Source: a virus. Taken from it: DNA of 64,000 nucleotides. The notes beneath the pieces are model-generated. The model ran no database searches, had not been told where the DNA came from, and was given only the letters and a program-made list of their open reading frames with translations. Below are positions 22,755-39,489 of the stretch, piece after piece; the stretch's first letter is position 1; every line of letters begins with the position of its first letter. Where the stretch lies: IMG/VR virus record IMGVR_UViG_3300017527_000515, positions 1 to 64,000 of that record. One strand, written 5' to 3'. A program made the translations under genes and the position numbers.

Positions 22755-24830
22755 TTAAAATTCTAAATATCCTACTCCGTCGTCTGTGTATGCAATTATA
22801 ACATCGTAATCATGTGTTGCCTTTCCATTAATATAAGAGGTTAGATTATTATCCTCTGTAAAGTATCTTGTGGCTCCTATTCTAGCCGTTAGATCAGCGT
22901 CTCCGTCTGGGGCAACTGAATTGATGTAGGCACTTAGCTCTTTCGTAGGCGTTGTTGTAACGTACCATATAGCATAGCGCATGGCCTCATCTGTTGTGGC
23001 GAAATGACGCATGTCATATAAATATTTAACCTTGTGTAGCTTTCTATTAAGTATGCGGCTCCTGGTGGGTGAGTAATATGATGCAACTTTGGTTACAAAG
23101 TGGGTGTATTTGTCCACTTTGGCAACCACATCGCTGCCTGAGCTGTAGAAATAGTCCTTCACAATAGTCTGAAACGATATATCGACCTCCTCATAATCCT
23201 GGAGCACCTGTGTGTATGAAGTATCGAAGACCTTCTCTGAGCCCTTCCAACTTTCAAAGTCGTACGGTAATACATCACGAGCAACTATCGACGCAGTTAG
23301 ATCTACTGGTAGTGTATAACCAGTAATAGACGCTCCTAAACTTAAACCACTACGGAATACACTTATGTCAACATTAAACTTGTCTTCTGTCCTCCAACCC
23401 AAAGGTTCTATGTGGATATTTATATTAAGTTTGTCCGTTACTACTGTATCAGTTGCGTAACCAAAGGTAGCGCTAAGATTATTTTGGGCCCACACATACC
23501 CCTTAGGATAAATCTGGGCGGATAAATCTCTCTGATATACAGGACGTATGTAACTAGACAAATCTTTAAAATTAGAGTAAAAACATGGTATACTTATTGT
23601 CGCAGACAAATCACTGTGCTCCATGGTAACAACCCCTAAGATACCTGTCAAGCGTATTCTCTTTGGGTAAATTTCTGCAGTAAGATTACCGATGTCCTGG
23701 CCCGGATCAATATAGGCGGTAAGGTTTCTAGCCTGTTGGGCCCAGAGCTGTGCTGGTAAATCGGTAACACCTTGAGTTACTAGTATATAGGCACTCAAAT
23801 CCGTCGGCAGAGCTAGAAATCTCTTACCTTCAATAGACGCTGGTAAGTGTGTATATCCACCAGTAATATTAATAGATGCCGGTAAGTTCCATGGATAAGC
23901 GGTTGGATTTATAATACCACCTAAATCAGCTTCTTGCCAACCATGTATGAAAGCTGAGATATTTCTTGGTTGTACAGGAAATAAATACGCAGGCAGCTGA
24001 GCCATTTCTGTTGCTCTAATAAACGCTCCTAAATCTTCGAGTGCAAATGAATGCACAGCCGCTCCTAAATCATACGTCGCCTCACGTACCCATCCTTTAA
24101 TTAATGCACCTAGATTCCTCGGTCTATGACCACCTATAATAGCTCCTAGATTTCTAAATCCTATCATATTTATGTAGGCACTTAGATCAGCTTCTTGCCA
24201 ACCATGTATAAAACCAGGTAAGTCTTCTTGTGGCCACACCTTTAAATACGCCGACAGGTCTTCCGGTGGTATACCAAAGAGCGAGGCTGTTAAATTTTCC
24301 TCGTGTATAGATGTAATATATGCAGGCAGATCTCTAAAAGCAAAACCACGGATGTACGCAGTAATATTCTCCGGGTCATGCATATCTATGTAAGCGCTAA
24401 GATCTCTAGGTAAATGGGCACCTATCTCTGCCGACAAATCATCATCACCATGACGAATAAACGCTGCAATATATGCTGGCAGGTCAACTGCTACCAAACC
24501 ACCAATAGTGGCAGGCAGATTGACTGGATCATGTGCAGCAATTGTAGCACCTAAGTCTCTTATACCGCCGTAATGACACTTACCTTTGATCACTTGTACG
24601 CCGTGTTGGCTGTACCCAACTATGTATGTTTCACAATATTTTAAGAAGGTGAAGGTCTCATGTTGATACGTACGAATACCTTTAATGGCAGCACCAAAAC
24701 TAGCCATCTGTTGCTTGATTTTACCAGTATCAAAATTAGCACTGATGTTGTTGAAATCAGGTGACTGATAACCGCCAGTATTAAAACTAAATGGTATATT
24801 ATTTTTGGGTGGTGGAGTATATTCCGCCAT
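22755..24830 (-). CDS. Putative virion protein with ~12-aa [D/N]L[P/S/G]A-x-I tandem repeats
   Basis: DLGATI, NLPATI, DLPAYI, DLSAEI, DLSAYI, NITAYI, DLPAYI and more; N-terminal YTPP..F / YQSP..F peptides. Confidence 0.7.
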   Translation of the reverse strand: MAEYTPPPKNNIPFSFNTGGYQSPDFNNISANFDTGKIKQQMASFGAAIKGIRTYQHETFTFLKYCETYIVGYSQHGVQVIKGKCHYGGIRDLGATIAAHDPVNLPATIGGLVAVDLPAYIAAFIRHGDDDLSAEIGAHLPRDLSAYIDMHDPENITAYIRGFAFRDLPAYITSIHEENLTASLFGIPPEDLSAYLKVWPQEDLPGFIHGWQEADLSAYINMIGFRNLGAIIGGHRPRNLGALIKGWVREATYDLGAAVHSFALEDLGAFIRATEMAQLPAYLFPVQPRNISAFIHGWQEADLGGIINPTAYPWNLPASINITGGYTHLPASIEGKRFLALPTDLSAYILVTQGVTDLPAQLWAQQARNLTAYIDPGQDIGNLTAEIYPKRIRLTGILGVVTMEHSDLSATISIPCFYSNFKDLSSYIRPVYQRDLSAQIYPKGYVWAQNNLSATFGYATDTVVTDKLNINIHIEPLGWRTEDKFNVDISVFRSGLSLGASITGYTLPVDLTASIVARDVLPYDFESWKGSEKVFDTSYTQVLQDYEEVDISFQTIVKDYFYSSGSDVVAKVDKYTHFVTKVASYYSPTRSRILNRKLHKVKYLYDMRHFATTDEAMRYAIWYVTTTPTKELSAYINSVAPDGDADLTARIGATRYFTEDNNLTSYINGKATHDYDVIIAYTDDGVGYLEF
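23925..24209. repeat. Exact 24-nt direct repeat pair (atcagcttcttgccaaccatgtat) at 23925-23948 and 24186-24209
   Basis: Read directly from the sequence; both copies encode the IHGWQEAD segment, in frame, 261 nt apart. Confidence 0.85.
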
Positions 24831-24839
24831 TCATATCTC

Positions 24840-26732
24840 CTATGGTGTTATCCAATCATAAGTTATAGCATTTGTTCCGCTAGCTGTATAAAGTGCTGTT
24901 ATATAATGCTCCTCATCGTACGGTGTGTCTATTGTAAATAGCCCGCCGCTATGGGTAGTGTCAGAGCCTGCCAATTCACCTGTTGATCTTCGATATAGCC
25001 TGACTGGTATACCATCTGTCAATAAAGCATCTACAGTTACAGTACCCGACGCTGTAAAAACAGGTTTGAATTCTGCAGATATAACCATCAGGTTATCAAA
25101 TGTTGTATAATAAGTGGCCTTCATCCAGGATTCTGACCTAATAATATTTGAATATCGAGCCTCAATTAGAGGACCTGTATGGTAAGTAGCAGAACCAGTA
25201 AAGATATTTCCCGTTCCTATTTCAAGATTTTGATTAGAATCTGTTATCCCATTTAACGCGCCCGAGCCGCCATTAGAAACTACACTGATATTTTCTAACC
25301 AATCATTAACTACAACAGTCGGTGATGATCCGTCGCCGATATATGAAAATCCAATATAGTAGTAGTCAGCTGTGTTGAATGCTGTATTACCAGCAACGCC
25401 TGTGTAATCACTGCCGGTCTTTTTAAACCCCAAAAACATATTAGTATCAGATCTTATTTTAAATCCCCAACCTTTGGAATTTCCAGAGTCTGTTTTTGCA
25501 AATATAGCATCAGACGCAGGACTTGTAGTCTTAAACACACATTCGGCGGTAAGGTTAGATGTTAGTTGTAAACTAGAATCATTACCACATTGTACGTATT
25601 CATTTACACCATCAGTATTTATACCTATAAACTTACCTTCATTTATAGAATCTGAATTTTCCATATTTACAGATGTACCATGATTGCCCGTATCAGTGGA
25701 ATCTTTTAGGCTAGATGCTGTATTATCCGGCACACCGGCCAAGTGCCAAACACCAACATAGTTATCATCCCAAACTTCCATCGCTGGGGCAGTGCCTGTG
25801 TCGCCTACCCATAGGTCATTATCTAAATGATTTTTATCATAGTAAAGGTATAACGTGGTATCTGTACCACTGACTATAGTGGGAACTTTTGTCCATAAAT
25901 TAGCCAACTCCTCATGAAAATTAAATTTTTCTATTTCTACATATAATTGATTAGTTCCTGTGTAATCAGTAACAGCTATTCTTTTATCATACCCAGCAAT
26001 TAATATATCAGTAAGTACCACATCATCAAAACCAGAGCTATTAGAGTTGCGCGTCAAGAATGACACGTGACCTTGCGTTGGGAAAGCTACAACATGTTCC
26101 CCTATATAATCCCATAGTTCAGGCTCAACCTCCCCTTGATACCAATGTTTAAAATATAAAACATTACCTGTTTTGCGAGCCCGGACATAAAACCAACCGG
26201 CACTAGCATTATAGTTGTATTTACTACTGCTTACTGGCTGGGTATTTACTCCTGATATACGGAAACCGAAACGGAATCTATTTATAGAACTATATCTTTG
26301 GAGATGCACATAAAAATAATCGTTAGTTGCTGGTGTGTCAGAATTCCAATAAAGCAAACAATCAGAATTACCACTGTTACTACTGCCTTGATATAGTCTA
26401 AAAGTCATTTCCCAATCAGTAACGCTATAAGTACCACTAGTAGATACTACCCCGTCATTATATATCCTCATATAACCAGCAGGATCTACATTTAAAGTGC
26501 CAGATTCAGCATACCAACCTTCGCCGTTACTTCCTGTAAAATCATCTTCGAATATTACACCACTACCCGTAGTGTAAATAAGTTCATCAAAAACTATACC
26601 AGCATTGAAATTATTACGGCCGGAGCCAGACGTCAATGTCAAACTCACAGGAAAATCAGTTAGATCTTCGTCTACTCTCTCATGATCTATTGTGTATTTT
26701 AACCTATTATCCCAACCAGCTAACCAGGCCAT
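24840..26732 (-). CDS. DUF2341 + LamG/concanavalin-like putative virion protein with shared C-terminal domain
   Basis: W..RLKYTID..LTDFPV, LYVEIE..LWTKVP..LYLYY, VWDDNYVGVWHL..DST..NHG, EARYSNIIRS..W; C-terminal VRLYRRSTGEL module. Confidence 0.8.
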   Translation of the reverse strand: MAWLAGWDNRLKYTIDHERVDEDLTDFPVSLTLTSGSGRNNFNAGIVFDELIYTTGSGVIFEDDFTGSNGEGWYAESGTLNVDPAGYMRIYNDGVVSTSGTYSVTDWEMTFRLYQGSSNSGNSDCLLYWNSDTPATNDYFYVHLQRYSSINRFRFGFRISGVNTQPVSSSKYNYNASAGWFYVRARKTGNVLYFKHWYQGEVEPELWDYIGEHVVAFPTQGHVSFLTRNSNSSGFDDVVLTDILIAGYDKRIAVTDYTGTNQLYVEIEKFNFHEELANLWTKVPTIVSGTDTTLYLYYDKNHLDNDLWVGDTGTAPAMEVWDDNYVGVWHLAGVPDNTASSLKDSTDTGNHGTSVNMENSDSINEGKFIGINTDGVNEYVQCGNDSSLQLTSNLTAECVFKTTSPASDAIFAKTDSGNSKGWGFKIRSDTNMFLGFKKTGSDYTGVAGNTAFNTADYYYIGFSYIGDGSSPTVVVNDWLENISVVSNGGSGALNGITDSNQNLEIGTGNIFTGSATYHTGPLIEARYSNIIRSESWMKATYYTTFDNLMVISAEFKPVFTASGTVTVDALLTDGIPVRLYRRSTGELAGSDTTHSGGLFTIDTPYDEEHYITALYTASGTNAITYDWITP

Positions 26733-26742
26733 ATTATTCTCC

Positions 26743-27090
26743 TTATGGTGTGTCTACATTCAAATCTCTTGTGTCGTTATTAGTCAGAGTCTCCTCTGCG
26801 CGGCCGCCATAATTCTGAGTATAGTGGTCGTATAATCTTTTATCATCTAAATTTAAAACGCTCAGTGCTGTGCCAGGTCCCCAAGACATGGTATATACCT
26901 TACCGTTTGTTAGGCTGGCGTCGGGGTCAGCCCAGATACCTGTAAATATATTAGAGAAACCTGCCAGTACATAATATACAGATAGAGCGAAGTCCATGTC
27001 AGCTTGGTTACCTTCAGGCGGACTGTACCCGGCTATATCAAAATTAATATTTGCGTTGTTTGCCTCTGGTGGGCTATATGCTTCCGCCAT
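26743..27090 (-). CDS. Small putative virion protein with two N-terminal YSPP...F peptides
   Basis: MAEAYSPPEANNANINFDIAGYSPPEGNQADMDF. Start moved to ATG 27090 with a GGGGAG SD. Confidence 0.7.
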   Translation of the reverse strand: MAEAYSPPEANNANINFDIAGYSPPEGNQADMDFALSVYYVLAGFSNIFTGIWADPDASLTNGKVYTMSWGPGTALSVLNLDDKRLYDHYTQNYGGRAEETLTNNDTRDLNVDTP

Positions 27091-30000
27091 CGTATCCATC
27101 TCCCCATACAGTGTCTTGTGTAATTGGATATGGGTCCATTTTACCAAGCACTAAGTGATTGTAGTCCACTGGTAGATCATCGTCCTGACATACTATATAA
27201 TGAGTACCACTATAAGAAGTTTCTAATCTATAATAGCCAGTACCACTGGCTGACACCGTGTAGTCCACGCGCTCATTAGTGTCTGCTCTAAAACATGCTA
27301 CTGGTCTAGATATAGGCACGTCTCTCTCAGTAATAGTACCTTCGAAATAATGAGTCTTATACTCAGGCCACTCTATCCATTGAAACCAATTCCAACTAGA
27401 ATTACCGCCATTATAGTTTGTTATGGTGGCTGTATTACTATCAGTTAGTACTACCTTATGACAGCTGGCATTGCTATCATTAGCGCCTGTACCATCGGCG
27501 CTGCCTTGGCTACTTACCATCGACATGCAAGCTACAGATCTGTCCATATTCCAATAATGACCTATAGACCCTTTAGTTTCTGATGTTACACCGCTGGATA
27601 AATCAGTCCAATAACCGCCATTTCTTATACCGTAAGCGGGGTTAAACTGTATAACTTCACAAGCGCGGCGATATAAAGCATCAGCACTGCTAGATTTGTT
27701 CCATTGTATTCCGTGGTCTTGTCTTGGGTATAATCTATAGTTTGCTCTGTCTGTATAATAGTTGTCTGTAGTAGGAGTATAGGAGCCAATTAGAAATCTA
27801 ACATGTTGTCCCCAACCACCACTAAAGTTAGCGTAGTCATAAAAATTAGTGTTACTGCCCGCGCTAGTATCATTAACGACGTGAGATACATACCATTGGT
27901 CTTGTAAACATTCTACTATATAAATACTTACCATGACAGCGTTAGCGCTGTTTTCTCTTTGGAAATGTAAAGTAGAAGAATCGGTAAACTTACCCCTAAC
28001 CTTATTTCTACTCTGGTAAGCCCCCCAGTCATCAGAAACCATGTGGAATTGCATAAATGTTTTAGTTAGGTCTACCGCCTCAGGTATATTTACTGCGGCA
28101 CTGGTACCAGTAAACACATATTCAATTCTCTGAATTTTTACTTGTCGCGGGTCAAACTCTACTATGTATACAGACTCGTCTGTGGTACCGCCACTACCTG
28201 CGGCCTCAGCACTACCTATCACAGCACTATTCACAGTGTCCATGTGCCACTTTCTCTGTAAATAAACCTGGTAGCCATTACTGGCGCCTGCTCGCCAACT
28301 AGCGAACGGCACACAATTATCAGCGTTCATACCATTGGGTAGATAGTTATATCTGACTGAACCTGTGGTGCCTTCAATATGATGTATATTTCTGACTAGA
28401 GAATTAGTAGGGTTACTAGTATTTACCAATGAATTAAATTTCTCATCAGCGTCTGGATGAGCATAACCAATCCAATCTATTAATCCGCCATATGAAGGAT
28501 TTAAGTTCGTTCCGGCAGGCGTATCTCTAGAACATTCCACCTGGGTATTACTAGTTACTAATCTATAGACATGAAAAGCACCGCGGAAATCATTAGAACC
28601 GGTGCCATCGGTGCGACCAACATTATTTAAACTTGCATTAAAAACAGTCCAGGCATCTTCATTTCCTAAGTGTCTAGTAGGTATAGTTCCAGTTTCTTGC
28701 GACTCTCCGGTGTCAAGAGTAGGAGCGTATAGATATAAATGCCGTCTGTTATCTAGAAACGTAATAACTTGAACATGTGAATACATTGTGTCAGCATTAG
28801 TAATACGATTGGTGAATACTCTATGACCACTAGGAGTATGACCAACCCTGGCAGTTGCTCTATCTGTGTAATAGTTATCTGTCGAAACAGCATATGATCC
28901 TAGTTCAAATCTAGAATAATAAGACCCCCATGAAGGCGTGTACACATTTCTATAAGTAGTTACATTCCCTGTATTATGATATACGTCTATCCAATTCCCA
29001 GTTAGATCCTCTACTACCCAGTAAACACCGTGAACTGAATTTCCAGCATCATTTCTATAGAATTCCACCTGGTCGCCGCTTGACACAAATCTAGATCTAA
29101 TAGAACTTCTACTGAACCAAGTCCCTTCATTTTGTTCCCAGTTATTTAGTATGAATGCTTTAGAAGTATCAACCCCACTAGCCAACGTCATAGTTTCTGT
29201 TGTGCTGCCCCAATTTGTAAACTCCCCGTATTCCACTTTAACCTGGTCTGGATAGAATTCCACCACACTTATGTCCACATAAGCATCCCCTGTAGCATCT
29301 GTTCTATGGGTTATTGCAACTCCTGGCTCTCTCAGCCAGGTTACACATTTATGTTCTCGTATCTGACTACAGCCCTCACCACGAGATGCTGCGAATACCG
29401 CACAGTTAGATATGTCCTGCCCTTTAGTTAGATCGTAGTAGTCCCAATAAGTATAATTATATATTCTAAAAGTCTCTACTGATTTAACTGGTGTTATGTC
29501 TGGGTCAAGTGGGGAGGGATTGGTTCCTGTGTTAATCACTATACCGCCCCAATCTATTACAGTTGCACCTTCGTAACTAGTATTACCACCGCCGTCTGAA
29601 TTTCTTTGCCTCTGTGCTTGGGTGGTGCTGTTGAACTTGTGTGACACCCACAAAGAATCTATCTGAGTAGTAGCGGTGGTCGTACCTCGTGCCACATGGC
29701 CGTTTGTGACTATCATGGCCTTGTTTAAATTGACTGGTCGATTAAAATTCCAAACACCTGTAGTGACTCCAGAGGCACCTAAGCTTAACTCCCTTTGATC
29801 TGATATATATACCTTACTATCGTCATTAAAGGTTATAAGTTGCCATGATGGGTATATAGTTCCGGTGGAATTGATTCTATCACATCGCCAAAAAGTTTTA
29901 AAGTAGGACCAAACTCTTACTGTACTACGGTCACAATAATAACCGTCGTCAGTAGGGGCCCAGGAAAATATAACCCAGGTCTTGGTGGGGTCATTTCGGT

Positions 30001-30610
30001 CCGAAGTAGCACCTGCTGGCCTCTTATCTTGTGCAGTGCCAGTAAAAGAAGAAGAATTATGTGTAACATTAAAATGTTCGTTAGTGGCACTTATGTCCTC
30101 AAACAAAAAATAGTGGCCAGAGACTGTCCCTGACCCCTCATTACGGTACATATCTACATATGTTCCGCCAGAATCCACCCTTCCTCTGACCATACACGTA
30201 TCCCAACGTCTATTGCCTGAAGAAGATCTCCAGTAATGTTTCATAGCAGTTTTATTCTGTGTAAATGATGAGGGGGTAGTGTAATTAGTAGTAGTTCCAC
30301 CTGGCAGAGATGAGAACGAACCTTGTTGCACCTTAATTTCAGCGGGCTCGAATTCAACTACGAAACATTTAATGTATATATTAGTAGATCTAGTGGTAGC
30401 TCTCTGAAAATTTATTACGCCGGACGCTACAGTCCCGCCGAAATATATATCAGTCAGATGACTATCTTGATAATCCTGCCCGCCATGTAAAGTCATGAAG
30501 GGCACACAATTCTGATAGTTCTGTCCCTTGGTTAGATCTATGGTCGACAACGTAGAGCCGGTGCCCTGTGTTATCTCTATGAATTCAACTGATTTTACCA
30601 TATCTGCCAT
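27074..30610 (-). CDS. Large putative receptor-binding/virion protein with three internal repeats and shared C-terminal domain
   Basis: Three copies of VKSVE..LTKGQ..NC.PF...VVEF.P..KV and of D.YY.DR; C-terminal RPVACFRADTNE module. Confidence 0.75.
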   Translation of the reverse strand: MADMVKSVEFIEITQGTGSTLSTIDLTKGQNYQNCVPFMTLHGGQDYQDSHLTDIYFGGTVASGVINFQRATTRSTNIYIKCFVVEFEPAEIKVQQGSFSSLPGGTTTNYTTPSSFTQNKTAMKHYWRSSSGNRRWDTCMVRGRVDSGGTYVDMYRNEGSGTVSGHYFLFEDISATNEHFNVTHNSSSFTGTAQDKRPAGATSDRNDPTKTWVIFSWAPTDDGYYCDRSTVRVWSYFKTFWRCDRINSTGTIYPSWQLITFNDDSKVYISDQRELSLGASGVTTGVWNFNRPVNLNKAMIVTNGHVARGTTTATTQIDSLWVSHKFNSTTQAQRQRNSDGGGNTSYEGATVIDWGGIVINTGTNPSPLDPDITPVKSVETFRIYNYTYWDYYDLTKGQDISNCAVFAASRGEGCSQIREHKCVTWLREPGVAITHRTDATGDAYVDISVVEFYPDQVKVEYGEFTNWGSTTETMTLASGVDTSKAFILNNWEQNEGTWFSRSSIRSRFVSSGDQVEFYRNDAGNSVHGVYWVVEDLTGNWIDVYHNTGNVTTYRNVYTPSWGSYYSRFELGSYAVSTDNYYTDRATARVGHTPSGHRVFTNRITNADTMYSHVQVITFLDNRRHLYLYAPTLDTGESQETGTIPTRHLGNEDAWTVFNASLNNVGRTDGTGSNDFRGAFHVYRLVTSNTQVECSRDTPAGTNLNPSYGGLIDWIGYAHPDADEKFNSLVNTSNPTNSLVRNIHHIEGTTGSVRYNYLPNGMNADNCVPFASWRAGASNGYQVYLQRKWHMDTVNSAVIGSAEAAGSGGTTDESVYIVEFDPRQVKIQRIEYVFTGTSAAVNIPEAVDLTKTFMQFHMVSDDWGAYQSRNKVRGKFTDSSTLHFQRENSANAVMVSIYIVECLQDQWYVSHVVNDTSAGSNTNFYDYANFSGGWGQHVRFLIGSYTPTTDNYYTDRANYRLYPRQDHGIQWNKSSSADALYRRACEVIQFNPAYGIRNGGYWTDLSSGVTSETKGSIGHYWNMDRSVACMSMVSSQGSADGTGANDSNASCHKVVLTDSNTATITNYNGGNSSWNWFQWIEWPEYKTHYFEGTITERDVPISRPVACFRADTNERVDYTVSASGTGYYRLETSYSGTHYIVCQDDDLPVDYNHLVLGKMDPYPITQDTVWGDGYDGGSI

Positions 30611-30622
30611 TGTAAATACCCC

Positions 30623-31483
30623 TTATTGTGCTGTATAGTAAGTGGTACCTTCGTCAATTTCTTCATCTATTACGAAGATTCCGCTGGTAGTAGCCACAAA
30701 TATGGTGTTGTTCACACCACTATCTGAAGTTCCTTCCGTTACAAATATATCCAGTATATCTACGCCTGCGTTGATGAGGAACGTACCAGTCTCATAAAAC
30801 TTGTCTGGTTGGTCCCAATCCTGATTATTTGCATTCTTTATATTAACACGCCACTTATTCCCATCCCATGTAGTATAGTATATCTTACCACTGGGGGTTA
30901 CAAATACCTTACGAGCTAACTTAGTATGCCCTTCTGCCCTTTGATAATATAAATCTGGCCCTCTATAGTTTACTCCAGAAGCCGTGCTCATAACTAGATG
31001 ACCGTTATTACCGTGTATATATCTAACTTGGTTAGATAATATGTCCGGTGTAGATAAATAATCACTGAGACATATTATCAGCTCATATGGGTTATCTGTA
31101 TCGCCGTCTATGCAAGTCTTGGGGAAGTATTTTACCCCGCTGGCCGGTGTTGCTAGATAAACATAAGTATCATCTGCCCATACTGAATTAAAGCCATGTT
31201 TATATGTTATATGCGCATAAGCTTTCTCTGATTCTAACTCTATTATATTTAATCCATCTGTAGTAGCTGCATATACATAGGTGTCATCTGTCCATATCTG
31301 CTTTAAATAAGTAAAAGGATCTGGACATTTGCCCCACTGTAACTCCGGTGGCCGTTCCCATTGCTCATCTTCATCCAACCATTGGGTAAAACAAGTCCCC
31401 TCTGTTGCACTTGAGAAATTAAACAAGTACGGAGATTGAGGATTCCAGCCTGGATCAGTGAAGTTAAATATATTTTGTGCCAT
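30623..31483 (-). CDS. Putative beta-propeller virion protein
   Basis: Blade-like repeats IWTDDTYVYAATTDGLNII / VWADDTYVYLATPASGVKY / IFVATTSGIFVI; N-terminal FNF..GWNP...FNF peptide. Confidence 0.7.
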   Translation of the reverse strand: MAQNIFNFTDPGWNPQSPYLFNFSSATEGTCFTQWLDEDEQWERPPELQWGKCPDPFTYLKQIWTDDTYVYAATTDGLNIIELESEKAYAHITYKHGFNSVWADDTYVYLATPASGVKYFPKTCIDGDTDNPYELIICLSDYLSTPDILSNQVRYIHGNNGHLVMSTASGVNYRGPDLYYQRAEGHTKLARKVFVTPSGKIYYTTWDGNKWRVNIKNANNQDWDQPDKFYETGTFLINAGVDILDIFVTEGTSDSGVNNTIFVATTSGIFVIDEEIDEGTTYYTAQ

Positions 31484-32349
31484 TACGCCCCCGAAAAAGT
31501 AGTTGGGTAAACATTACCTATAATTAAATCATTATATGCATCGCCAGCTGCATCATCTAATGCTACTATGTAATGCGATCCGCTGTAAGAAGTCTCAATG
31601 TAATAACCACCGTCACCGCTTGAGGTTGTTTCTCCAAGTACGCCACCGTTATCTCTTCTGTGTAGCCTTACTGACCTCTCTACCGGCAACCCCTCTTGAA
31701 AAATATAACCGTCAAAATACCCTAATACAAGCCTTTTGTAGTATTCCCCGTATTCAGGACCATAACCAGAGGTGGTAGTGGTGACGTTATCGTTTATGGC
31801 AGCAGAGCCCACACAACTATAACAGTTGTAAGCATTATTAAAATGTGTTTTTAATATCTGGCCGCCTGTTGTCACATTCGGCCAATTAGCGTTTATTATA
31901 TGTGCATAGCCCCTCTGAAAATAGCAATTTTTTATTTCCAAGGTATCAAAAAGCTGGTCCGATGGCTCAAACGGATATTGATCATTACCTGCTACTATGT
32001 AACATTTATTAATATAAAGAGACAGGTCATCATTAGAACTAGTTACATCCACTACTCTGGTCCATGAGCTATTAGGTTTAGTTATTTTAAATCCTTCTAT
32101 ATAAATAGACTGTTCACTGACAGGTGCGTAAGTTATATACACTGAAGAAGACCCACCTGACGGACTACGTATCTCAACGGTACCTGTATAATTATCAGTA
32201 CTCGCCCTAAGACTCACAGCCTTATCTATAGTTACACTTTCAACATATTGAGCAGGATCTACAATTATTAAATCACCATCTGAAGCTGCGTCAATAGCTA
32301 ACTGTATACCTAAATAGTCTTTGCCTACACCTACATATATAAAAGCCAT
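31483..32349 (-). CDS. Pectin-lyase-like parallel beta-helix protein with shared C-terminal domain
   Basis: VGVGKDY..IQLAIDAASDGD.I.V....Y.E.V.IDK.V.L beta-helix cap, IEGFKIT; C-terminal RSVRLHRRDNG module. Confidence 0.7.
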   Translation of the reverse strand: MAFIYVGVGKDYLGIQLAIDAASDGDLIIVDPAQYVESVTIDKAVSLRASTDNYTGTVEIRSPSGGSSSVYITYAPVSEQSIYIEGFKITKPNSSWTRVVDVTSSNDDLSLYINKCYIVAGNDQYPFEPSDQLFDTLEIKNCYFQRGYAHIINANWPNVTTGGQILKTHFNNAYNCYSCVGSAAINDNVTTTTSGYGPEYGEYYKRLVLGYFDGYIFQEGLPVERSVRLHRRDNGGVLGETTSSGDGGYYIETSYSGSHYIVALDDAAGDAYNDLIIGNVYPTTFSGA

Positions 32350-32352
32350 AAT

Positions 32353-35300
32353 TTAAGCTCCTGTATAAATATAATCTGGTAAAGTAAAACTATCTGTTCT
32401 TACATATACTCCATCGGGAGTAGCGCTGCCGAAGTATATCAATATAGTACCGTCATCATTTACTAAGACTGGTTTTGAATTTACATTAGCAGAATTAGCA
32501 GATGATTGTCGGGCTACGTGGTGCCCACCATAGGTACTATCAGTACGATAATATAGATCTTGATTATCATTACTATTATTAATTAAAAAAGTAGCAGCAG
32601 CTTGGCATTTCCACCCTGGAGGAACAACCAGTGTAGTAGAAGTCTCCGAATCAGATGGATTTTGCCAACCGTTAGGGTTGGCTGCTGATCTCCACACCAC
32701 CTCTCCGGCAAAAAGGTCAAAGATAAGTACCTCTGAAGAGTCAGTACTGTAGATAACCCCTATACATCTATCGTCTCCATCATAGTACCCCATGTTTGGG
32801 TAATCTATTGTAGGTATACCTGAAGATGCTGTGAAATTAGAACTATCTAATGTGGATGTAGAACCAGATACATTAGTGTATACATAGTACCATGTATCTG
32901 TTGCTAGTCCAGAAACAGTGACTTCAGTTCTATCATTCAATTCGTACATACCATAGTAACTATCTTTCATGTGTATAGTTCCTGGGTTTATGTATATACC
33001 ACTTGTTGTTGCGTACTCTACCTGTAAGGATTGCTTTCCTTTATCAACTGGTATGTCTGTTATATCTCTCCAGCGATAAACTTTTATAGTACAAGATACG
33101 GCATTAGCTACTGCTATATCTATTGACGTTACGTTATCTTCAGTATTAGACCAATAACCAGCAAAGGTACTTGTTATTCTGTCTGTGTTAGCAGAATCAT
33201 ACACAGTATCTTGGCAATTAACAAATCTTGGGCCTCCTGATTTTAAATACACATCAGTGGTAGCAAATATCTGCCTTGTAGCTAGTGGAGTTCCTAAGCA
33301 GTATCTAAAATCACTGCCAGAAAGCACTGACCCTCCGTCAGCAGAAGAACCATGTTGTGTAATGAGTCCCACACTGTAATTAGAACCTGAATCATTATTT
33401 AATCTAAAAGTAGTGTCAGGGGCCACTGTAGTCATCTTTGTCCACGATGATTCTATCTTTGCTCGCGGCCAATTATCACCATCCCATGGAATAGACTCAC
33501 TGAATGTTTCGTTATCAGCTTCGATAGTTGCCACTAGTACCCAGTTTCCTTCCGCAGGCGGAGCCTCAGTATAACTACCACTTATTTTAGCGATAGCACC
33601 TGTGTTGCCGGAAAGATCTGTGGGGCCAGCAACACCAGTAACCGCCGAACCATCAGAAGCATACGCAAGGAATTCTACATAATCACCGGCATTTAAGTAT
33701 TCTGTGCAGGCATGTGCTCTGGCATCATTGGAACCTTGGCCAGAAATTCTATTAAAATCTAATATTTTAGTGCCATTTACCTGCCACTTAGTTCTTACAC
33801 TAGTGGGGGCAGAACTAGTATTAAATCCTGCGGTAAATACGTACCAACCATCAGACGGAGCAGTTAGTCTAGTTGGGTTACTTACATCCCAATAACCTTC
33901 ATCGTCTCGCAGTGTGGTATCCCAACTTAAAGGTGTGTAAACACCATCAGGTAACGACTGAGTAGTGCTTCTATAAACCCTAGCACCAGATGTACCCAGC
34001 CCTCCAGCGGCCGCGCTAACGAAATCTATACCAGAGCCAGTAGAAACCAACAGTTGCCCTGTTTCACCATAATCATCTGGGGTATCAGTTAAACCAGAGA
34101 ATGTTGTTGGAGATTCAGGTAATTCCTCCCACACAATTCCAGAGCCAGTAGATATTAAGTGTTGATTTTCTGTGCCAGAATACGTTACTGGGGTATCGTT
34201 CAGATCCAAAAAGCTCTCTACATAACTAGGAAATAGTTTGAACTCTAAGGCTGTAGCCGCATCATTTGCTCCTAAATAACCACTAAAGGGAACTTCTGTG
34301 ACTTCATATGTACATAAAGTATTTCTCAGAGAAAAATTAGTAGCTTTTATCCAAGCATCTGTTCTAGCTATCTTAGATATTCTAATGTTATCAACAACGC
34401 CATCAAAGCCATTGGCTGAGTTGCTGTATTCACCACCAATAACAATGGTGTGGGTGTTAACCTCAAAGTTCGTTTCTCCAGAAGCATTGGTTGTGTGACT
34501 GCCGTTGTGGAAACCTTTCATGGCGCCGCTATTCTGGGTCAGGGCTGAATAATAGTAAACATCTTCTGGAACATAAGCATTTGATATGTTTATGCTGTGT
34601 GATGTAGAAGATGGGTGGTAAGTACCACCTAATAAATTATCGGTAGATCCAGTAGCACCTGCACCTGTTTGGAAAAAATAATCAAAAGCTGGGTTAGCAC
34701 CACCGCGCACTACTATTTTTTGGTATCCATCTATAGAAAAATCATCTGGTTTATGTAGTGCTTCTAGAGTAAGTTGTGTGGTTAGATTTTGAGAACTTGT
34801 ATACGGAATATTAATCTCATCGTCGCCGCCATCAAAATCTATACCCTTACCAACCAAGCCATTTACTAAATCCCCGCCACCCATACCACCAGCCGGAGTA
34901 CCGTGGTTGTGATTAGAGGTACTATCTTTTATGCATAAAGAGCCGCCAGCAGGAGACTGTGCCATATTATATACAGCTATGAAATCACTATCCCAAACTG
35001 CTTCAGCCGGTGTGCTATTCACATCCCCAACGTAGGTGGTGTTGTCTGGCAAGTCTGCACTATAAACCAGCCTTAATACCGTATCTTCTACGGAAGATAT
35101 ACTAGGAACTTTAGTATGAAGAACAGCTTTATTACTTCCTTCTTCCCACAATTCTATTTCTGTATAACATTGCTGGCTAGCTTCTGTTAGTATCTGAAAC
35201 TTTTTAGAGTTAGCGCCGAGCTCCGTAAAAACTAAAGAACTATTTAGTACTACTGTTAAAGGAAAATTGGTCAGAGTAGAATCTATTTTAGTATGATCTA

Positions 35301-38300
35301 TGGTTATTACTACTTGCTTTACTACGTCTGGATAAACTGAAGGAGTATCAGTTAGTCCCAAAAATGTTGAACTTCCTGACGCCGTACTGACTGGCGCATC
35401 GTTGACTAGTAAATCATTACCATCAGCCGAAAGTTTTAAATCTCCTATGTACACTGTTCCGCTGGAAGTATAAATATCATTACAATGAATGTCTCCAGTA
35501 CCTGATATAGTACCCGTGCCGAAGTTCCATGGCACATAGTCACTAAGATCCCCGCCTCCTCCTCCTGTATTTTCAGCCATCTGAATAACTGACATTCTGG
35601 CTGGGTGTGTCGCAAATTGTGCTGTTTCTGTCGAACCTTTTTCCTGTCTAACATACGTATCTATATAATCACCAGCAACACAATCCACCAAAGTTGTTAT
35701 TTGTAGACTCTCTACTGATGTAGCAGCAGCTACTCTTTTACCGACCGTTTGGATGGGCACACCGTTTTTGCGGATTGCAATAGTAATAATATCCTGGTCG
35801 CCCATAAGAGTCAAACGTTCGGCAGTAGAGGTAACTAGATACTTACCGTCTTGTTTGGCAGTAACCCTGTTGTTAACTGTATCTGCTATATCACCCACAT
35901 TAAGGTCTACCCCGTTAAAAGGTACCTTATACCATACACCACTATCCATAGAAATACCAGAGTTGCAGGTCATCTTAGCCATGTGTAATGACGCACCCTG
36001 GTCTACACTGGCGTATTCGACCAGCTGTACAACGGAAATGGTTGGTGGTTCTGGCGTCACAACCTCTTGAGCAGAGCCTGTGTTTTGCCACATATGTAGT
36101 TCTAATTCGTCGCCCTCATTCAAATCTAACACGGTGTTTAATTCTACTGGAGCATATCCACCGCCGCCGGAAGCTTCCCATATGTCAAGAGCTACAGAAG
36201 TACCATTTACAAATAAATATAGCCAAGATTCCTTCTGGTCGGTAAATATAGCGCCATAACGATGTTTTAAATTTATATAGTATTTACCATCTCTTTGTAT
36301 GAAAACAGAACCGCTTGTAGTATTAGCCATACCACCGGCATCAAATTCTATAGTGTCTAAAGGTATCTTAGTGTCTGCTCCCCCAGTAGGTAAGCTGAAT
36401 GAAGCCTGTCGGCTCATCTTTGTCATATGCATTATAGTACCACTAGGTACTACGTCTACAAATTCTACACCCGATGCTGTAGTTTGAAGGTATTTACCTA
36501 CCTCACCGGCGTATGAAGTGGGAGTATCATCTAGATCTAAGAACGTTTGAACATCTGATGTACCACCTCCCCCACCTTCAGAGCTGGTAAATTCAGCCAG
36601 TCTCACCACTGACATTTTAGGTTCCCACGATCCAGTGTTTGTGTCACGATCACTACCGTGATTATGATAGATATAATATTCTAAATAATCATCTTTTTGT
36701 AAATCAAGAATATCAACTATCGTAGGGGTGTTATTATTAATATGAGCAGCGCCAGCGCCCGGACTACCATTGACATATATATAAGTTAGTAAATCTCCAG
36801 AAAGACCATCCAGATTACATTTACCAGTGACTAGGTATTTTCCCGCAGTCTTAATAACAAACTTACTGTTATTAATATCTCCTATGTCGCCCATATTATA
36901 TTCTAGAGTATCAAAATCTACTTTTTGTACGGCACCACTGGATATACTTTGCGCACCGGCTCTCGACATACTGGCCATGTCTGATGATATACCAGAAGCT
37001 ACTGGTAATTGTAGATTAACACGTTTATACAACCTAAATGTACCAGTTAGATCTGTGTTGTCTGTCCATAGTCTGAAAGATGTAATTTTATCTGATGTAT
37101 TATCCCAAAAAAAACCCTGATTTGATGACCACCATTTGTCAGTATCATCACTTCTTTGAGCTGATCTGTTATTAAGAATTACCCGCTTCTGGCCAGTATT
37201 TTTTAGATACCATGTAGTTTTTTCAGTTTCTACATAATCATAAGAGTTGGTCAAGTAGAAAAAGGTCGAGCCAGGAGATGTATTTGATACAGGGACGGCA
37301 CCATCCTGTGTAACATAACCAACATCATAATTAGCGCCACTATCGTTATTGAATCTTAATTTAACATTAGATCCACCTGGAATCTCGGCGTTTATAACTT
37401 CGAATATTACCACATCATCTACATCACCGTCCCATGTAAAGGTTTGGTCGATGCCGCCCGAAATTAAAGTCCACTCTTGTACCAGCTCATTAACATAAAT
37501 ATTAGTATCTATATAATCAGGTTCATATATAGGTAGAGATACATTTGTTCTTTTGTATATTTTAACATATCCTGTAATATCATCAGTAGTACTTAAAGTA
37601 AAAGATTCTACCTCATCTGCAGTATTATCCCATATACCAGTCAGTAATACATTATTATGATCAGCCTCATCAACCTCGTATCTCCATTGCTGTGATGCGG
37701 ATACTCTTTTTTTGCCGGACTTTAGAAATAAATTATTTACAGAAGCAACATAACCGTTAAGGACAGTATTTGCCACTGACATATATGTATACGGATCTTC
37801 CGCTCCACCTGACGCGCCATTAGATATTTGCCCTAACCAAGACATAGAATAATTTGTTGAAGTATCATTATTAAATCTTAAATAAGTAGCAGAACCTCCC
37901 GTACCAGTTGCCTGATACTGACACTCTATTACCCATCTATCATCGGTATTTCCTTGTATACCAGACAAAGTAACATTTAAAGTTTCATCATTAGCACTAT
38001 ACTCAGCCACCAGTTCCAGGGCCTCATAATCCGTACCTACAGAGTTTATATTATGTGCCGAAAAATCTATACCCGAACCAGTGGACACCAGTACCTTGCC
38101 TATAGTGTCAATATAGTCATTTGGGGTGTCGTTGTGGTCTGTAAATGCTTCAGCGCCAGGTGCCTCTCCGCCGGAAGCAGTAGTTGGCATATATAACAAG
38201 TCCCACTCTGCGCTGCTAAGCTCCATCATCTCTATTTCACTTAGATGAACCTCTGCTCCGCCAGAGTTGATGGCAGTAATGAATACTCTATAGTATAAGA

Positions 38301-39489
38301 AATCCTCATCATTGGTGAATTCATACTCTTTCCAAACGCTTTCTGGCCATTGGGGCTCACCAGTCACAGTAAAGAATGTAGTTTCTTCACCCGCGAAAGC
38401 GCCTGTGTTTGATCCTCTGAATGAAAAATCCCTTGGGCTTTTAATATCATTTGCTGGATGCATTCTAATCTTTTGTATCTGCTTCTGTGCTGCAAACTGA
38501 TACCCTATCCACACGGGATATGTGGGTGAATTTCCAGTAGACCAACGACTAGTATAAGAAGTATTGTTATCAAATGCTTTAGAAGGAGTATAACTAAGGG
38601 CATACTCACTGCCTTGCGGCGTGCCCCCAGTACATTCATCAGAACCATATGTAAGTATAGTTTTGGCAAATATACTACCTGATATAGTATCTAGATAATA
38701 ATTATTTGGATCGCCCAATGCTCCTGATGGAGTACCTTCACCATTAAGCCAGAGTGTTCCAGCAGGAACCTCCACCCATTTGGTACCGTTAGCTTTAGAA
38801 TATAGGAATTTACCCTCATCATAAGTAGGTGGTGTGTCTGTTAACTCTAACAGCGTAGTGGCTTTAGTGTCCACATAGGATACAGTGGCCATCTCAGTAC
38901 CAGCCACAAATAGATTACCATTAACAGCAGTGAGTTCTACTTCTCCTATATATACTGTACCACTGGCTGTGTATATATCATTACAGTAGATGTCTCCCGT
39001 GCCAGAGATCGTTCCACTCCCAAAATCCCACGGCACGAAGTTATCGTAAGCAGCATGTGTGTGGTCATCAGTACCAGATACGGGTACAAATGCAAACTCA
39101 ACGCCGGATGCTGTAGCGCTGACCATCACAAATTGACCCTCTGATCCTGAGTACGTGGTTGGAGTATCAGTTAAGTTTATAAACTCAGACACTCCGGCCG
39201 CTATTATAGTACCACCACTGCCCTCTGACCCGTCATGATCGTGATCTGGTAGACTGCCGGTGGGGCCTTGAGTTATAACACTATACCAGGCATCTGTTAA
39301 AGAAGCGGTCAGTCCTGACTCATCTATTATTACTGTTGTATAAGGTGAGGAATAAGTTGACGACACGATAGTGGCGTACTTTACCCCGTCCAAACCACAA
39401 TCCAGCTTAACTCGTCTAGTCACAATAAAGTTAGTTGTCTCATTGCCTATGACTTTGAAGCTGTTAGCACTTACATAAATAGCATCCAT
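32353..39489 (-). CDS. Giant multi-domain tail fibre/adhesin (2378 aa)
   Basis: Seven F/LxxLxDTPxxY shaft repeats, one discoidin-like, four C1q-like, three RFNNDxxxNY..WxNT domains, and DUF2341+LamG. Confidence 0.8.
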   Translation of the reverse strand: MDAIYVSANSFKVIGNETTNFIVTRRVKLDCGLDGVKYATIVSSTYSSPYTTVIIDESGLTASLTDAWYSVITQGPTGSLPDHDHDGSEGSGGTIIAAGVSEFINLTDTPTTYSGSEGQFVMVSATASGVEFAFVPVSGTDDHTHAAYDNFVPWDFGSGTISGTGDIYCNDIYTASGTVYIGEVELTAVNGNLFVAGTEMATVSYVDTKATTLLELTDTPPTYDEGKFLYSKANGTKWVEVPAGTLWLNGEGTPSGALGDPNNYYLDTISGSIFAKTILTYGSDECTGGTPQGSEYALSYTPSKAFDNNTSYTSRWSTGNSPTYPVWIGYQFAAQKQIQKIRMHPANDIKSPRDFSFRGSNTGAFAGEETTFFTVTGEPQWPESVWKEYEFTNDEDFLYYRVFITAINSGGAEVHLSEIEMMELSSAEWDLLYMPTTASGGEAPGAEAFTDHNDTPNDYIDTIGKVLVSTGSGIDFSAHNINSVGTDYEALELVAEYSANDETLNVTLSGIQGNTDDRWVIECQYQATGTGGSATYLRFNNDTSTNYSMSWLGQISNGASGGAEDPYTYMSVANTVLNGYVASVNNLFLKSGKKRVSASQQWRYEVDEADHNNVLLTGIWDNTADEVESFTLSTTDDITGYVKIYKRTNVSLPIYEPDYIDTNIYVNELVQEWTLISGGIDQTFTWDGDVDDVVIFEVINAEIPGGSNVKLRFNNDSGANYDVGYVTQDGAVPVSNTSPGSTFFYLTNSYDYVETEKTTWYLKNTGQKRVILNNRSAQRSDDTDKWWSSNQGFFWDNTSDKITSFRLWTDNTDLTGTFRLYKRVNLQLPVASGISSDMASMSRAGAQSISSGAVQKVDFDTLEYNMGDIGDINNSKFVIKTAGKYLVTGKCNLDGLSGDLLTYIYVNGSPGAGAAHINNNTPTIVDILDLQKDDYLEYYIYHNHGSDRDTNTGSWEPKMSVVRLAEFTSSEGGGGGTSDVQTFLDLDDTPTSYAGEVGKYLQTTASGVEFVDVVPSGTIMHMTKMSRQASFSLPTGGADTKIPLDTIEFDAGGMANTTSGSVFIQRDGKYYINLKHRYGAIFTDQKESWLYLFVNGTSVALDIWEASGGGGYAPVELNTVLDLNEGDELELHMWQNTGSAQEVVTPEPPTISVVQLVEYASVDQGASLHMAKMTCNSGISMDSGVWYKVPFNGVDLNVGDIADTVNNRVTAKQDGKYLVTSTAERLTLMGDQDIITIAIRKNGVPIQTVGKRVAAATSVESLQITTLVDCVAGDYIDTYVRQEKGSTETAQFATHPARMSVIQMAENTGGGGGDLSDYVPWNFGTGTISGTGDIHCNDIYTSSGTVYIGDLKLSADGNDLLVNDAPVSTASGSSTFLGLTDTPSVYPDVVKQVVITIDHTKIDSTLTNFPLTVVLNSSLVFTELGANSKKFQILTEASQQCYTEIELWEEGSNKAVLHTKVPSISSVEDTVLRLVYSADLPDNTTYVGDVNSTPAEAVWDSDFIAVYNMAQSPAGGSLCIKDSTSNHNHGTPAGGMGGGDLVNGLVGKGIDFDGGDDEINIPYTSSQNLTTQLTLEALHKPDDFSIDGYQKIVVRGGANPAFDYFFQTGAGATGSTDNLLGGTYHPSSTSHSINISNAYVPEDVYYYSALTQNSGAMKGFHNGSHTTNASGETNFEVNTHTIVIGGEYSNSANGFDGVVDNIRISKIARTDAWIKATNFSLRNTLCTYEVTEVPFSGYLGANDAATALEFKLFPSYVESFLDLNDTPVTYSGTENQHLISTGSGIVWEELPESPTTFSGLTDTPDDYGETGQLLVSTGSGIDFVSAAAGGLGTSGARVYRSTTQSLPDGVYTPLSWDTTLRDDEGYWDVSNPTRLTAPSDGWYVFTAGFNTSSAPTSVRTKWQVNGTKILDFNRISGQGSNDARAHACTEYLNAGDYVEFLAYASDGSAVTGVAGPTDLSGNTGAIAKISGSYTEAPPAEGNWVLVATIEADNETFSESIPWDGDNWPRAKIESSWTKMTTVAPDTTFRLNNDSGSNYSVGLITQHGSSADGGSVLSGSDFRYCLGTPLATRQIFATTDVYLKSGGPRFVNCQDTVYDSANTDRITSTFAGYWSNTEDNVTSIDIAVANAVSCTIKVYRWRDITDIPVDKGKQSLQVEYATTSGIYINPGTIHMKDSYYGMYELNDRTEVTVSGLATDTWYYVYTNVSGSTSTLDSSNFTASSGIPTIDYPNMGYYDGDDRCIGVIYSTDSSEVLIFDLFAGEVVWRSAANPNGWQNPSDSETSTTLVVPPGWKCQAAATFLINNSNDNQDLYYRTDSTYGGHHVARQSSANSANVNSKPVLVNDDGTILIYFGSATPDGVYVRTDSFTLPDYIYTGA

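Follow-up and report, generated by a model that had tools for sequence, protein, structure and literature searches.

In the podophages KP32, K11 and KP34 of Klebsiella, the branched receptor-binding proteins (RBPs) comprise a branching domain on RBP1 and a conserved docking peptide on RBP2, and it has been shown experimentally that incorporation fails once one or the other of these elements is lost (Latka et al. 2019, PMC6872550; Latka et al. 2026, PMC13352976). Another type of pairing is known for fibres followed by a downstream chaperone or cap, such as the Pam3 gp25 fibre/chaperone (PMC9608196) and the 'transient chaperone caps' of an Alteromonas phage (PMC10579305). The current study concerns three consecutive gene pairs in an uncultivated large phage (IMG/VR virus record IMGVR_UViG_3300017527_000515; 115,457 bp, estimated completeness about 40%), the first 64 kb of which form the window. 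In each pair the product of the first gene ends in a shared domain, here called the socket, and the product of the second begins with a shared peptide, the plug. The comparisons reported below make it probable, at roughly 0.6, that the socket serves to attach accessory adhesins to core tail proteins by way of a docking peptide on the latter.

In the following, A1, A2 and A3 denote the genes ending in a socket, and B1, B2 and B3 the gene next after each. All six open reading frames (ORFs) listed in a preliminary description of this DNA were recovered by ORF calling, on the minus strand and with identical coordinates:

31483..32349, minus strand: A1, 288 amino acids (aa); N-terminal head and C-terminal socket; no Pfam or PHROG match
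31486..31755, minus strand: socket of A1, residues ~199-288; hmmsearch 1.2e-44 with a 3-sequence profile that includes this copy itself
30623..31483, minus strand: B1, 286 aa; N-terminal plug and propeller-like blade repeats; weak PorZ beta-propeller match
31415..31471, minus strand: plug of B1, residues 5-23; degenerate copy, plug profile E 0.12
27074..30610, minus strand: A2, 1178 aa; three ~360-aa repeats, C-terminal socket and 18-aa tail
27077..27373, minus strand: socket of A2, residues ~1080-1178; found by BLASTP and profile
26743..27090, minus strand: B2, 115 aa, ATG start; tandem plug and one four-stranded blade
26989..27090, minus strand: plug of B2, residues 1-34; plug profile 1.5e-10
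24840..26732, minus strand: A3, 630 aa; DUF2341, lectin-like region and C-terminal socket; Pfam DUF2341 1.7e-5
24843..25067, minus strand: socket of A3, residues ~556-630; second socket subtype
22755..24830, minus strand: B3, 691 aa; plug and ~26 copies of a 12-residue [DN]-L-x-A-x-I repeat
24729..24830, minus strand: plug of B3, residues 1-34, tandem Y-x-P-P...F-x-F units; plug profile 1.5e-13

The socket is a small beta-sandwich of about 75 aa located at the C-terminus of A1, A2 and A3. Its presence in all three proteins, as proposed in the preliminary description, was borne out by BLASTP (A1/A2 4e-13, 40% over 86 aa; A1/A3 2e-7; A2/A3 0.036), and a profile of the three window sockets detected no fourth copy among the 454 ORFs of the whole record. 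Protein identity among the three copies is only about 35-40%, and for this reason the idea of DNA recombination among the window's own three junctions was dropped. The plug is a peptide of about 25-35 residues that is aromatic and proline-rich and has no acidic calcium-loop pattern. Its core reads PHI-x-F, 3-4 residues, G-Y-x-P, 4-6 residues, PHI-[ND]-[FW], often with Y-x-P-P ahead of it. The N-termini of B2 and B3 match each other at 5e-5 and have the tandem peptide in common. A plug profile was built from 34 N-termini of other contigs, leaving out the window's own peptides to avoid circularity, and its top three matches among the 454 ORFs were B3, B2 and B1, in each case at the very N-terminus. 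B1 had already been described as the weakest match, and within the window its copy is indeed degenerate. Its homologues in two related contigs (L040 and L042) carry clear plug copies (5e-10 and 8e-9), indicating that the B1 peptide belongs to the same family.

The order of socket gene followed by plug gene, claimed previously, holds in three of three cases in the window. A1 and B1 overlap by 1 nucleotide (nt; TAATG), A2 and B2 by 17 nt, and A3 and B3 are separated by 9 nt. With about 90 genes in the record, the chance of three such pairs adjoining is about 1e-5 (order of magnitude). Programmed read-through joining A3 to B3 was considered and dropped, due to two in-frame stops in the 9-nt spacer region.

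This arrangement resembles that of the Klebsiella branched RBPs, in that a folded domain on one tail protein is combined with a short, conserved peptide at the N-terminus of a neighbouring gene's product, and the heads are modular and exchangeable. A short conserved N-terminal peptide on the neighbour, which characterizes the KP32 type, is present in B1, B2 and B3 (about 25-35 aa). The similarity is one of analogy and not of homology: the elements have no sequence or family relation to those of Klebsiella (no Pfam or PHROG match), and no T4 gp10-like branching domain was matched by Pfam or PHROGs in any of the six proteins. In Klebsiella the T4 gp10-like domain lies within RBP1, which is anchored to the virion, and the peptide is located on the passenger RBP2, whereas here, where docking is deduced from sequence, the C-terminal sandwich would belong to the passenger and the peptide to the resident protein. 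Furthermore, three pairs occur here in a row. A literature search retrieved the Klebsiella branching-domain work and papers on Tfa, but no description of this domain-peptide pair.

Adjacency was checked with profiles of both motifs on 40 usable loci that were obtained by scanning IMG/VR and JGI metagenomes with the socket and B3; counts are non-redundant by nucleotide sequence. The pairing proved near-universal, with a plug following 40 of the 42 distinct sockets (37 within 120 nt, three at 214-911 nt downstream). The two sockets without a plug above threshold precede the window's weak B1 copy and a gene of contig L048, respectively. Conversely, 41 of 44 distinct plugs had a socket upstream (38 within 120 nt, three at 214-911 nt) and the remaining three lie at contig starts, where this is undeterminable; thus no plug was demonstrably without a socket. 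In two of the three distant cases, an HNH-like gene is inserted between socket and plug.

Such HNH-like, homing-endonuclease-type genes (about 285 aa, with a Cys-rich N-terminus) separate the socket gene from the plug-bearing B3, precisely at their boundary, in several relatives (L019:9150-10001, L035:406-1278, L051:1917-2789, L045:1-459 and L036:3-404), and in L019 a similar gene is also found upstream of a B1-like gene. In a single case (L016/L048), two socket genes in a row are followed by a B2-like protein with a doubled plug at its N-terminus.

Socket and plug are gained and lost together. In the tree of B3 proteins, three state changes were found for the plug and three for the socket, all on the same branches, and these include the close sister pairs L022/L029 and L021/L025. 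In 11 contigs, A3 and the plug of B3 are both missing. In the B1 family, socket gene and plug are both present in three cases and both absent in five, with no discordant case. The L010/L014 locus shows both losses, since A1 is absent and B1 lacks the plug, A3 is absent and B3 lacks the plug, while A2 and the plug-bearing B2 are retained. As the B bodies are kept without the plug when the A gene is absent, B would be the resident scaffold and A the optional passenger. This polarity had been left open by the preliminary description and is added here as the arrangement that the patterns of loss favor.

The heads in front of the socket vary widely. At the A3 position, head-less socket ORFs of 73-77 aa occur directly before the B3 plug gene in three lineages, and other heads at this position range from 133 to 1007 aa. 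In L005, A2 and B2 form a single continuous ORF, a natural fusion. Another joined form was encountered in P0152, a metagenome protein from ENA (320 aa, on a contig of 2458 nt) in which the bodies of B1 (64% identity) and B2 (71%) are joined in one chain, and A2, socket and plug are all absent. P0152 is a single observation for which an assembly artefact is possible; it suggests that B2 may be the final blade of the propeller formed by B1, and that A2 with its socket and the plug looks like an insertion which split an ancestral gene.

The same pair was found in unrelated cultured phages. A megablast search of the region against cultured phages gave no match, and searches with the sockets by tblastn returned only 7 and 4 records, from a few siphophages. 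In Sphingomonas phage MMDA13, gp24 (SPRY plus socket) is directly followed by gp25, a protein of 54 aa that is essentially a tandem plug and is annotated as 'putative tail assembly protein'. In Xanthomonas phages Elanor and Mallos, Variovorax phage V45iii, Stenotrophomonas phage Bhz59 and an IMG/VR contig (L006), the plug forms the C-terminal end of a J-like tail protein, and the gene after it (about 300 aa) ends in a socket. Pseudomonas phage Epa43 has a triple plug in a protein of 82 aa, and a socket in a protein of 171 aa that is encoded two genes further along. J-like relatives in Salmonella phage BP12C and Sphingomonas phage Lucius have neither plug nor socket. The pair occurs in Mesyanzhinovviridae and in a Sphingomonas siphovirus with a different gene order. 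Its persistence outside a single DNA junction, and with a plug at the C-terminus, would be hard to explain without a functional partnership, and judged by gene layout it is these cultured phages that raise the case above mere synteny.

The stand-alone plug proteins of 54-82 aa (MMDA13 gp25, L054:5183-5347; Xanthomonas phage DoCa6, L068:841-1005; Epa43, L059:4637-4885) have in common a linker rich in Gly and, at the C-terminus, a hydrophobic strand that is conserved (…N-F-M-I-L-L…). It is conceivable that they act as adaptors by inserting into another, third protein.

Since the B bodies are kept without the A gene and the plug, and since the plug is found on siphophage tail-tip proteins, the most economical model is one in which the plug is a docking site on resident proteins and the socket the anchor of the passenger. 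The socket would thus be the virion-anchoring domain of accessory tail proteins with lectin-like or enzymatic heads, and A1, A2 and A3 would be passengers hung on B1, B2 and B3. In this locus the plug would be presented at the N-terminus of the resident tail component, namely the B1/B2 propeller and the B3 repeat fibre. Its two PHI-x-F strands around a G-Y-x-P turn, often after Y-x-P-P, would be bound by a sandwich resembling transthyretin or CarboxypepD_reg; the alternating aromatics would be compatible with two short strands packing against, or extending, this sandwich. The head gene with its socket, together with the plug-coding 5' end of the next gene, behaves like a single cassette in gain, loss and exchange.

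A wider version of this proposal is put forward only tentatively and with clearly less confidence than the anchoring role itself. Here, the cassette would be widespread and self-contained and would bring its own docking site: the head-socket gene would travel with a plug segment that becomes fused in frame to the downstream resident tail gene, so that any core tail protein could be made an adhesin carrier. A propeller gene could then be split into B1 and a plug-bearing B2 (compare P0152), and other layouts, i.e. the C-terminus of the J protein and stand-alone multi-plug adaptors, would serve siphophages.

A profile search of 1.84 billion protein representatives placed the socket in 1173 clusters, 335 of them at E <= 1e-10, in proteins ranging from 81 to 2141 aa. 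Among the 150 best representatives of these clusters, the socket ended within 10 residues of the C-terminus in 127, and none of the 150 carried a plug. Pfam scans of 103 representatives identified LamG_3 (42), DUF2341 (19) and SPRY (6) ahead of the socket, as well as disaggregatase repeats, F5/8 type C and CBM96 (3 each); by these family matches, the preceding heads are lectin-like or enzymatic. Where a protein of 200-300 aa is made up of one lectin head and a socket, only the socket is left as a candidate anchor. Scans of IMG/VR with three distant socket proteins yielded no socket loci, and a socket-alignment scan of genome contigs found nothing.

Further arrangements of the domain were observed in this collection. 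P0026 (1416 aa) contains at least five tandem sockets (11 matched stretches), so that the socket is also an internal repeat and not solely a C-terminal module. In P0008, P0033, P0060, P0130 and others, a conserved extension of about 30 aa follows the socket (P-T-V-I-S-G-x-F-A-Y-N-E-G-L...G-V-P-L-G-R-Q). Its carriers are a subset of A2-like and other socket proteins, and the A2 of the window has a different tail of 18 aa.

In size and strand pattern the socket is like sandwiches of the transthyretin clan (CarboxypepD_reg PF13620, TTR-52, SdrD B, macroglobulin MG), to which it gave weak profile matches (E 3e-4 to 0.08). None of the sockets checked reached the curated Pfam threshold for membership of this clan. 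The best match, to PF13620 in a socket from a cultured phage, had an E-value of 2.9e-4 and 21.5 bits against a cut-off of 32.3, and the match to TTR-52 in five of 15 A3-type sockets (0.038) was likewise sub-threshold; the window's own three sockets had no Pfam match to the clan. We know of no transthyretin-clan member to which the role of a peptide-docking anchor in phage tail proteins has been ascribed, and none was found in the literature searched.

The clan fold is a prealbumin-like sandwich of seven strands. AlphaFold2 (AF2) modeled the socket as a small beta-sandwich of 5-7 strands, with a predicted local distance difference test score (pLDDT) of about 90 in the L005 fusion and 75-84 in a surrogate of the A3-B3 pair. 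The best matches of the socket model in VIA-align were MG, SdrD-B, TTR-52 and RgpB-CTD domains, with Z 4.8-6.0 over 55-77 residues, a range that may mean a common strand arrangement only. Foldseek against the PDB gave no match at E <= 0.001, and a profile search of PDB sequences also gave none.

In a fragment of the natural L005 A2-B2 fusion (P0001), AF2 predicted the socket confidently and the B2 blade fairly, and the plug (residues 91-131) had a pLDDT < 50; in the underlying alignment, MAFFT had put the last strand of the sockets under the plug columns, possibly harming the prediction. The surrogate was an artificial protein in which the A3 socket was read through into the first 43 residues of B3, with the two in-frame stops read as Gly and an alignment of 6 paired and 10 unpaired rows, and here too the plug had a pLDDT < 50. 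Both single-chain runs thus give no verdict on docking.

The preliminary description had inferred that the C-terminal sandwich binds the N-terminal peptide of the next gene product in a donor-strand or dockerin-like manner. Comparative genomics strongly supports two parts of this proposal, the functional coupling of the socket with the plug of the next gene and the exchange of heads on constant connectors. Physical binding and the specific donor-strand or dockerin mechanisms were not supported: the peptide was disordered in both AF2 models, and no cohesin, dockerin or pilin family was matched by Pfam among the six proteins and the sockets scanned. As in cohesin-dockerin and chaperone-usher systems, variable heads appear to be joined modularly to scaffolds, the link being a small domain and a short element of the partner. 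Donor-strand acceptors have an incomplete Ig-like fold that lacks the last strand, whereas the socket was modeled with good confidence on its own, as a closed sandwich with six to seven strands; the model does not suggest a missing strand, and augmentation of an edge strand is still conceivable.

Among the alternatives, the main functional rival, itself unlikely, is an assembly chaperone or cap. The product of the plug gene would bind the upstream C-terminal domain for folding or capping only, perhaps transiently, and no structural docking would take place. It is well known for the product of a downstream gene to bind the upstream fibre at its C-terminal tip (PMC9608196; PMC10579305). As in Tfa-type pairs, the downstream product would recognize the C-terminal end of the upstream protein, and both are exchanged as a cassette. 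Moreover, B2 is of chaperone size at 115 aa, as are the plug proteins of cultured phages (54-82 aa), one of which, MMDA13 gp25, bears an annotation in tail assembly. However, unlike in Tfa-type pairs, the conserved parts here are the C-terminal domain and the first 30 or so residues of the partner, the bodies of the proteins vary, and partners include large structural proteins such as B3 (a repeat fibre of 691 aa), B1 (a propeller) and the J-like proteins of siphophages. No tail-assembly-chaperone or Tfa family was matched by B1, B2 or B3 in Pfam or PHROGs (E <= 0.1 and 0.01, respectively). The loss pattern argues in the same direction, as B1 and B3 have lost the plug precisely in those cases in which the A gene is missing and the B body stays, so that B is not there to serve A.

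It is similarly improbable that the socket end and the plug start form a junction module without binding, that is, a recombination linker or a scar of cassette insertion, in which the socket would be a glycan-binding tip and the plug a separate baseplate anchor. Socket and plug form one continuous piece of DNA and are always swapped jointly, a C-terminal position is typical of receptor-binding tips, and sandwiches of this type often bind sugars. The junction is also the locally best conserved DNA beside a highly variable head: between relatives, DNA identity was 30-45% in the A3 head, 62-79% in the socket, 59-83% in the plug (73-83% in three of four comparisons, and 59% against L026) and 47-79% in the B3 body. 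Yet at about 60-83% the junction is too dissimilar for efficient homologous exchange among these relatives, and the three window copies share only about 35-40% protein identity. The insertion of HNH-like genes between socket and plug genes leaves the pairing intact. In the unrelated siphophages the plug either ends the product of the previous gene or makes up a mini-protein of its own, with the socket one or two genes off, and the pair endures there although no single DNA junction is formed. Head-less socket proteins of 73-77 aa would have no route to the virion under such a scheme.

Conserved synteny alone, with neighbours by descent in one lineage and motifs that are common low-information features of tail proteins, is already disfavoured and very improbable, for even though most loci examined are relatives found via B3, the plug is short and the B1 copy reaches only E 0.12, a profile lacking the window peptides picks exactly the three genes after sockets, joint gains and losses are repeated and independent, the same pair recurs in Mesyanzhinovviridae and the Sphingomonas siphovirus with a different gene order, and none of the 150 socket-bearing representatives checked itself carries a plug.

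Several points weigh against the anchoring of socket-bearing passengers to plugs on core tail proteins. The contiguity of socket and plug (9 nt between A3 and B3) lets one deletion or recombination event move both, so that joint gain and loss is weaker evidence than it would seem, and most of the 40 contigs are relatives with a conserved gene order. In L048, the gene next to the first socket has no plug, and near the plug mini-protein of DoCa6 there is only a marginal, internal socket-like match (E 0.004). Direct binding of the plug by the socket, and its resemblance to beta-augmentation, is what we infer from the sequence comparisons, and the presence of the A and B proteins in the virion is assumed from gene position.

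All genes of the locus lie on the minus strand, and the locus comes at the end of a series of structural genes that are very large (1884, 2911, 957, 1176 and 2378 aa). The replication genes (sliding clamp, RecA, DnaB) come directly after it, and B3 closes the structural genes, ahead of those for the sliding clamp and RecA. The 2378-aa protein directly upstream of A1 (32353-39489) has C1q/BclA-C-like, LamG and DUF2341-like parts and repeated T-D-T-P-x-x-Y segments, and has neither socket nor plug. Outside the window, positions 79535-103780 of the record are occupied by one uninterrupted ORF of 8081 aa on the minus strand.

PHROGs contained no family for any of the six proteins. The DUF2341 domain assigned to the A3 head in the preliminary description was recovered by Pfam. 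The triple head described for A2 is discernible as three repeats of about 360 aa through recurring motifs (V-K-S-V-E..., D-N-Y-Y-T-D-R...), although BLAST self-comparison gave no off-diagonal match. A2 has no family match, and many homologues of about 1130-1200 aa are found among the protein representatives. In B3, the approximately 26 copies of the repeat, [DN]-L-[PSGT]-A-x-[IL], are for the most part spaced exactly 12 residues apart within residues 92-440. No Pfam or PHROG family was matched by this protein, and ESM Atlas gave only unnamed viral clusters at 0.75.

The host range of a phage depends on the receptor-binding heads that it carries and on their mode of attachment. The domain-peptide connector of the Klebsiella podophages is experimentally proven and has already been used for plug-and-play phage engineering. 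The principle is therefore known, and it is the domain, the peptide and the polarity that all appear to differ here. If the anchoring role is true, the socket and plug would be a second, unrelated connector, which is small (a domain of about 75 aa and a peptide of about 30 aa) and seemingly portable between contexts (N-terminal, C-terminal and stand-alone). The attachment to the tail of lectin-like proteins that lack a recognizable anchor would then be explained. As the socket is present in more than 1000 protein clusters, including those of cultured Xanthomonas, Stenotrophomonas, Pseudomonas and Sphingomonas phages, it would also provide a functional annotation for many hypothetical proteins and a new handle for retargeting phages, and the claim is directly testable in phages already in culture. 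Should the self-contained cassette also prove true, it would amount to a general connector, not described before, for the host-recognition modules of phages.

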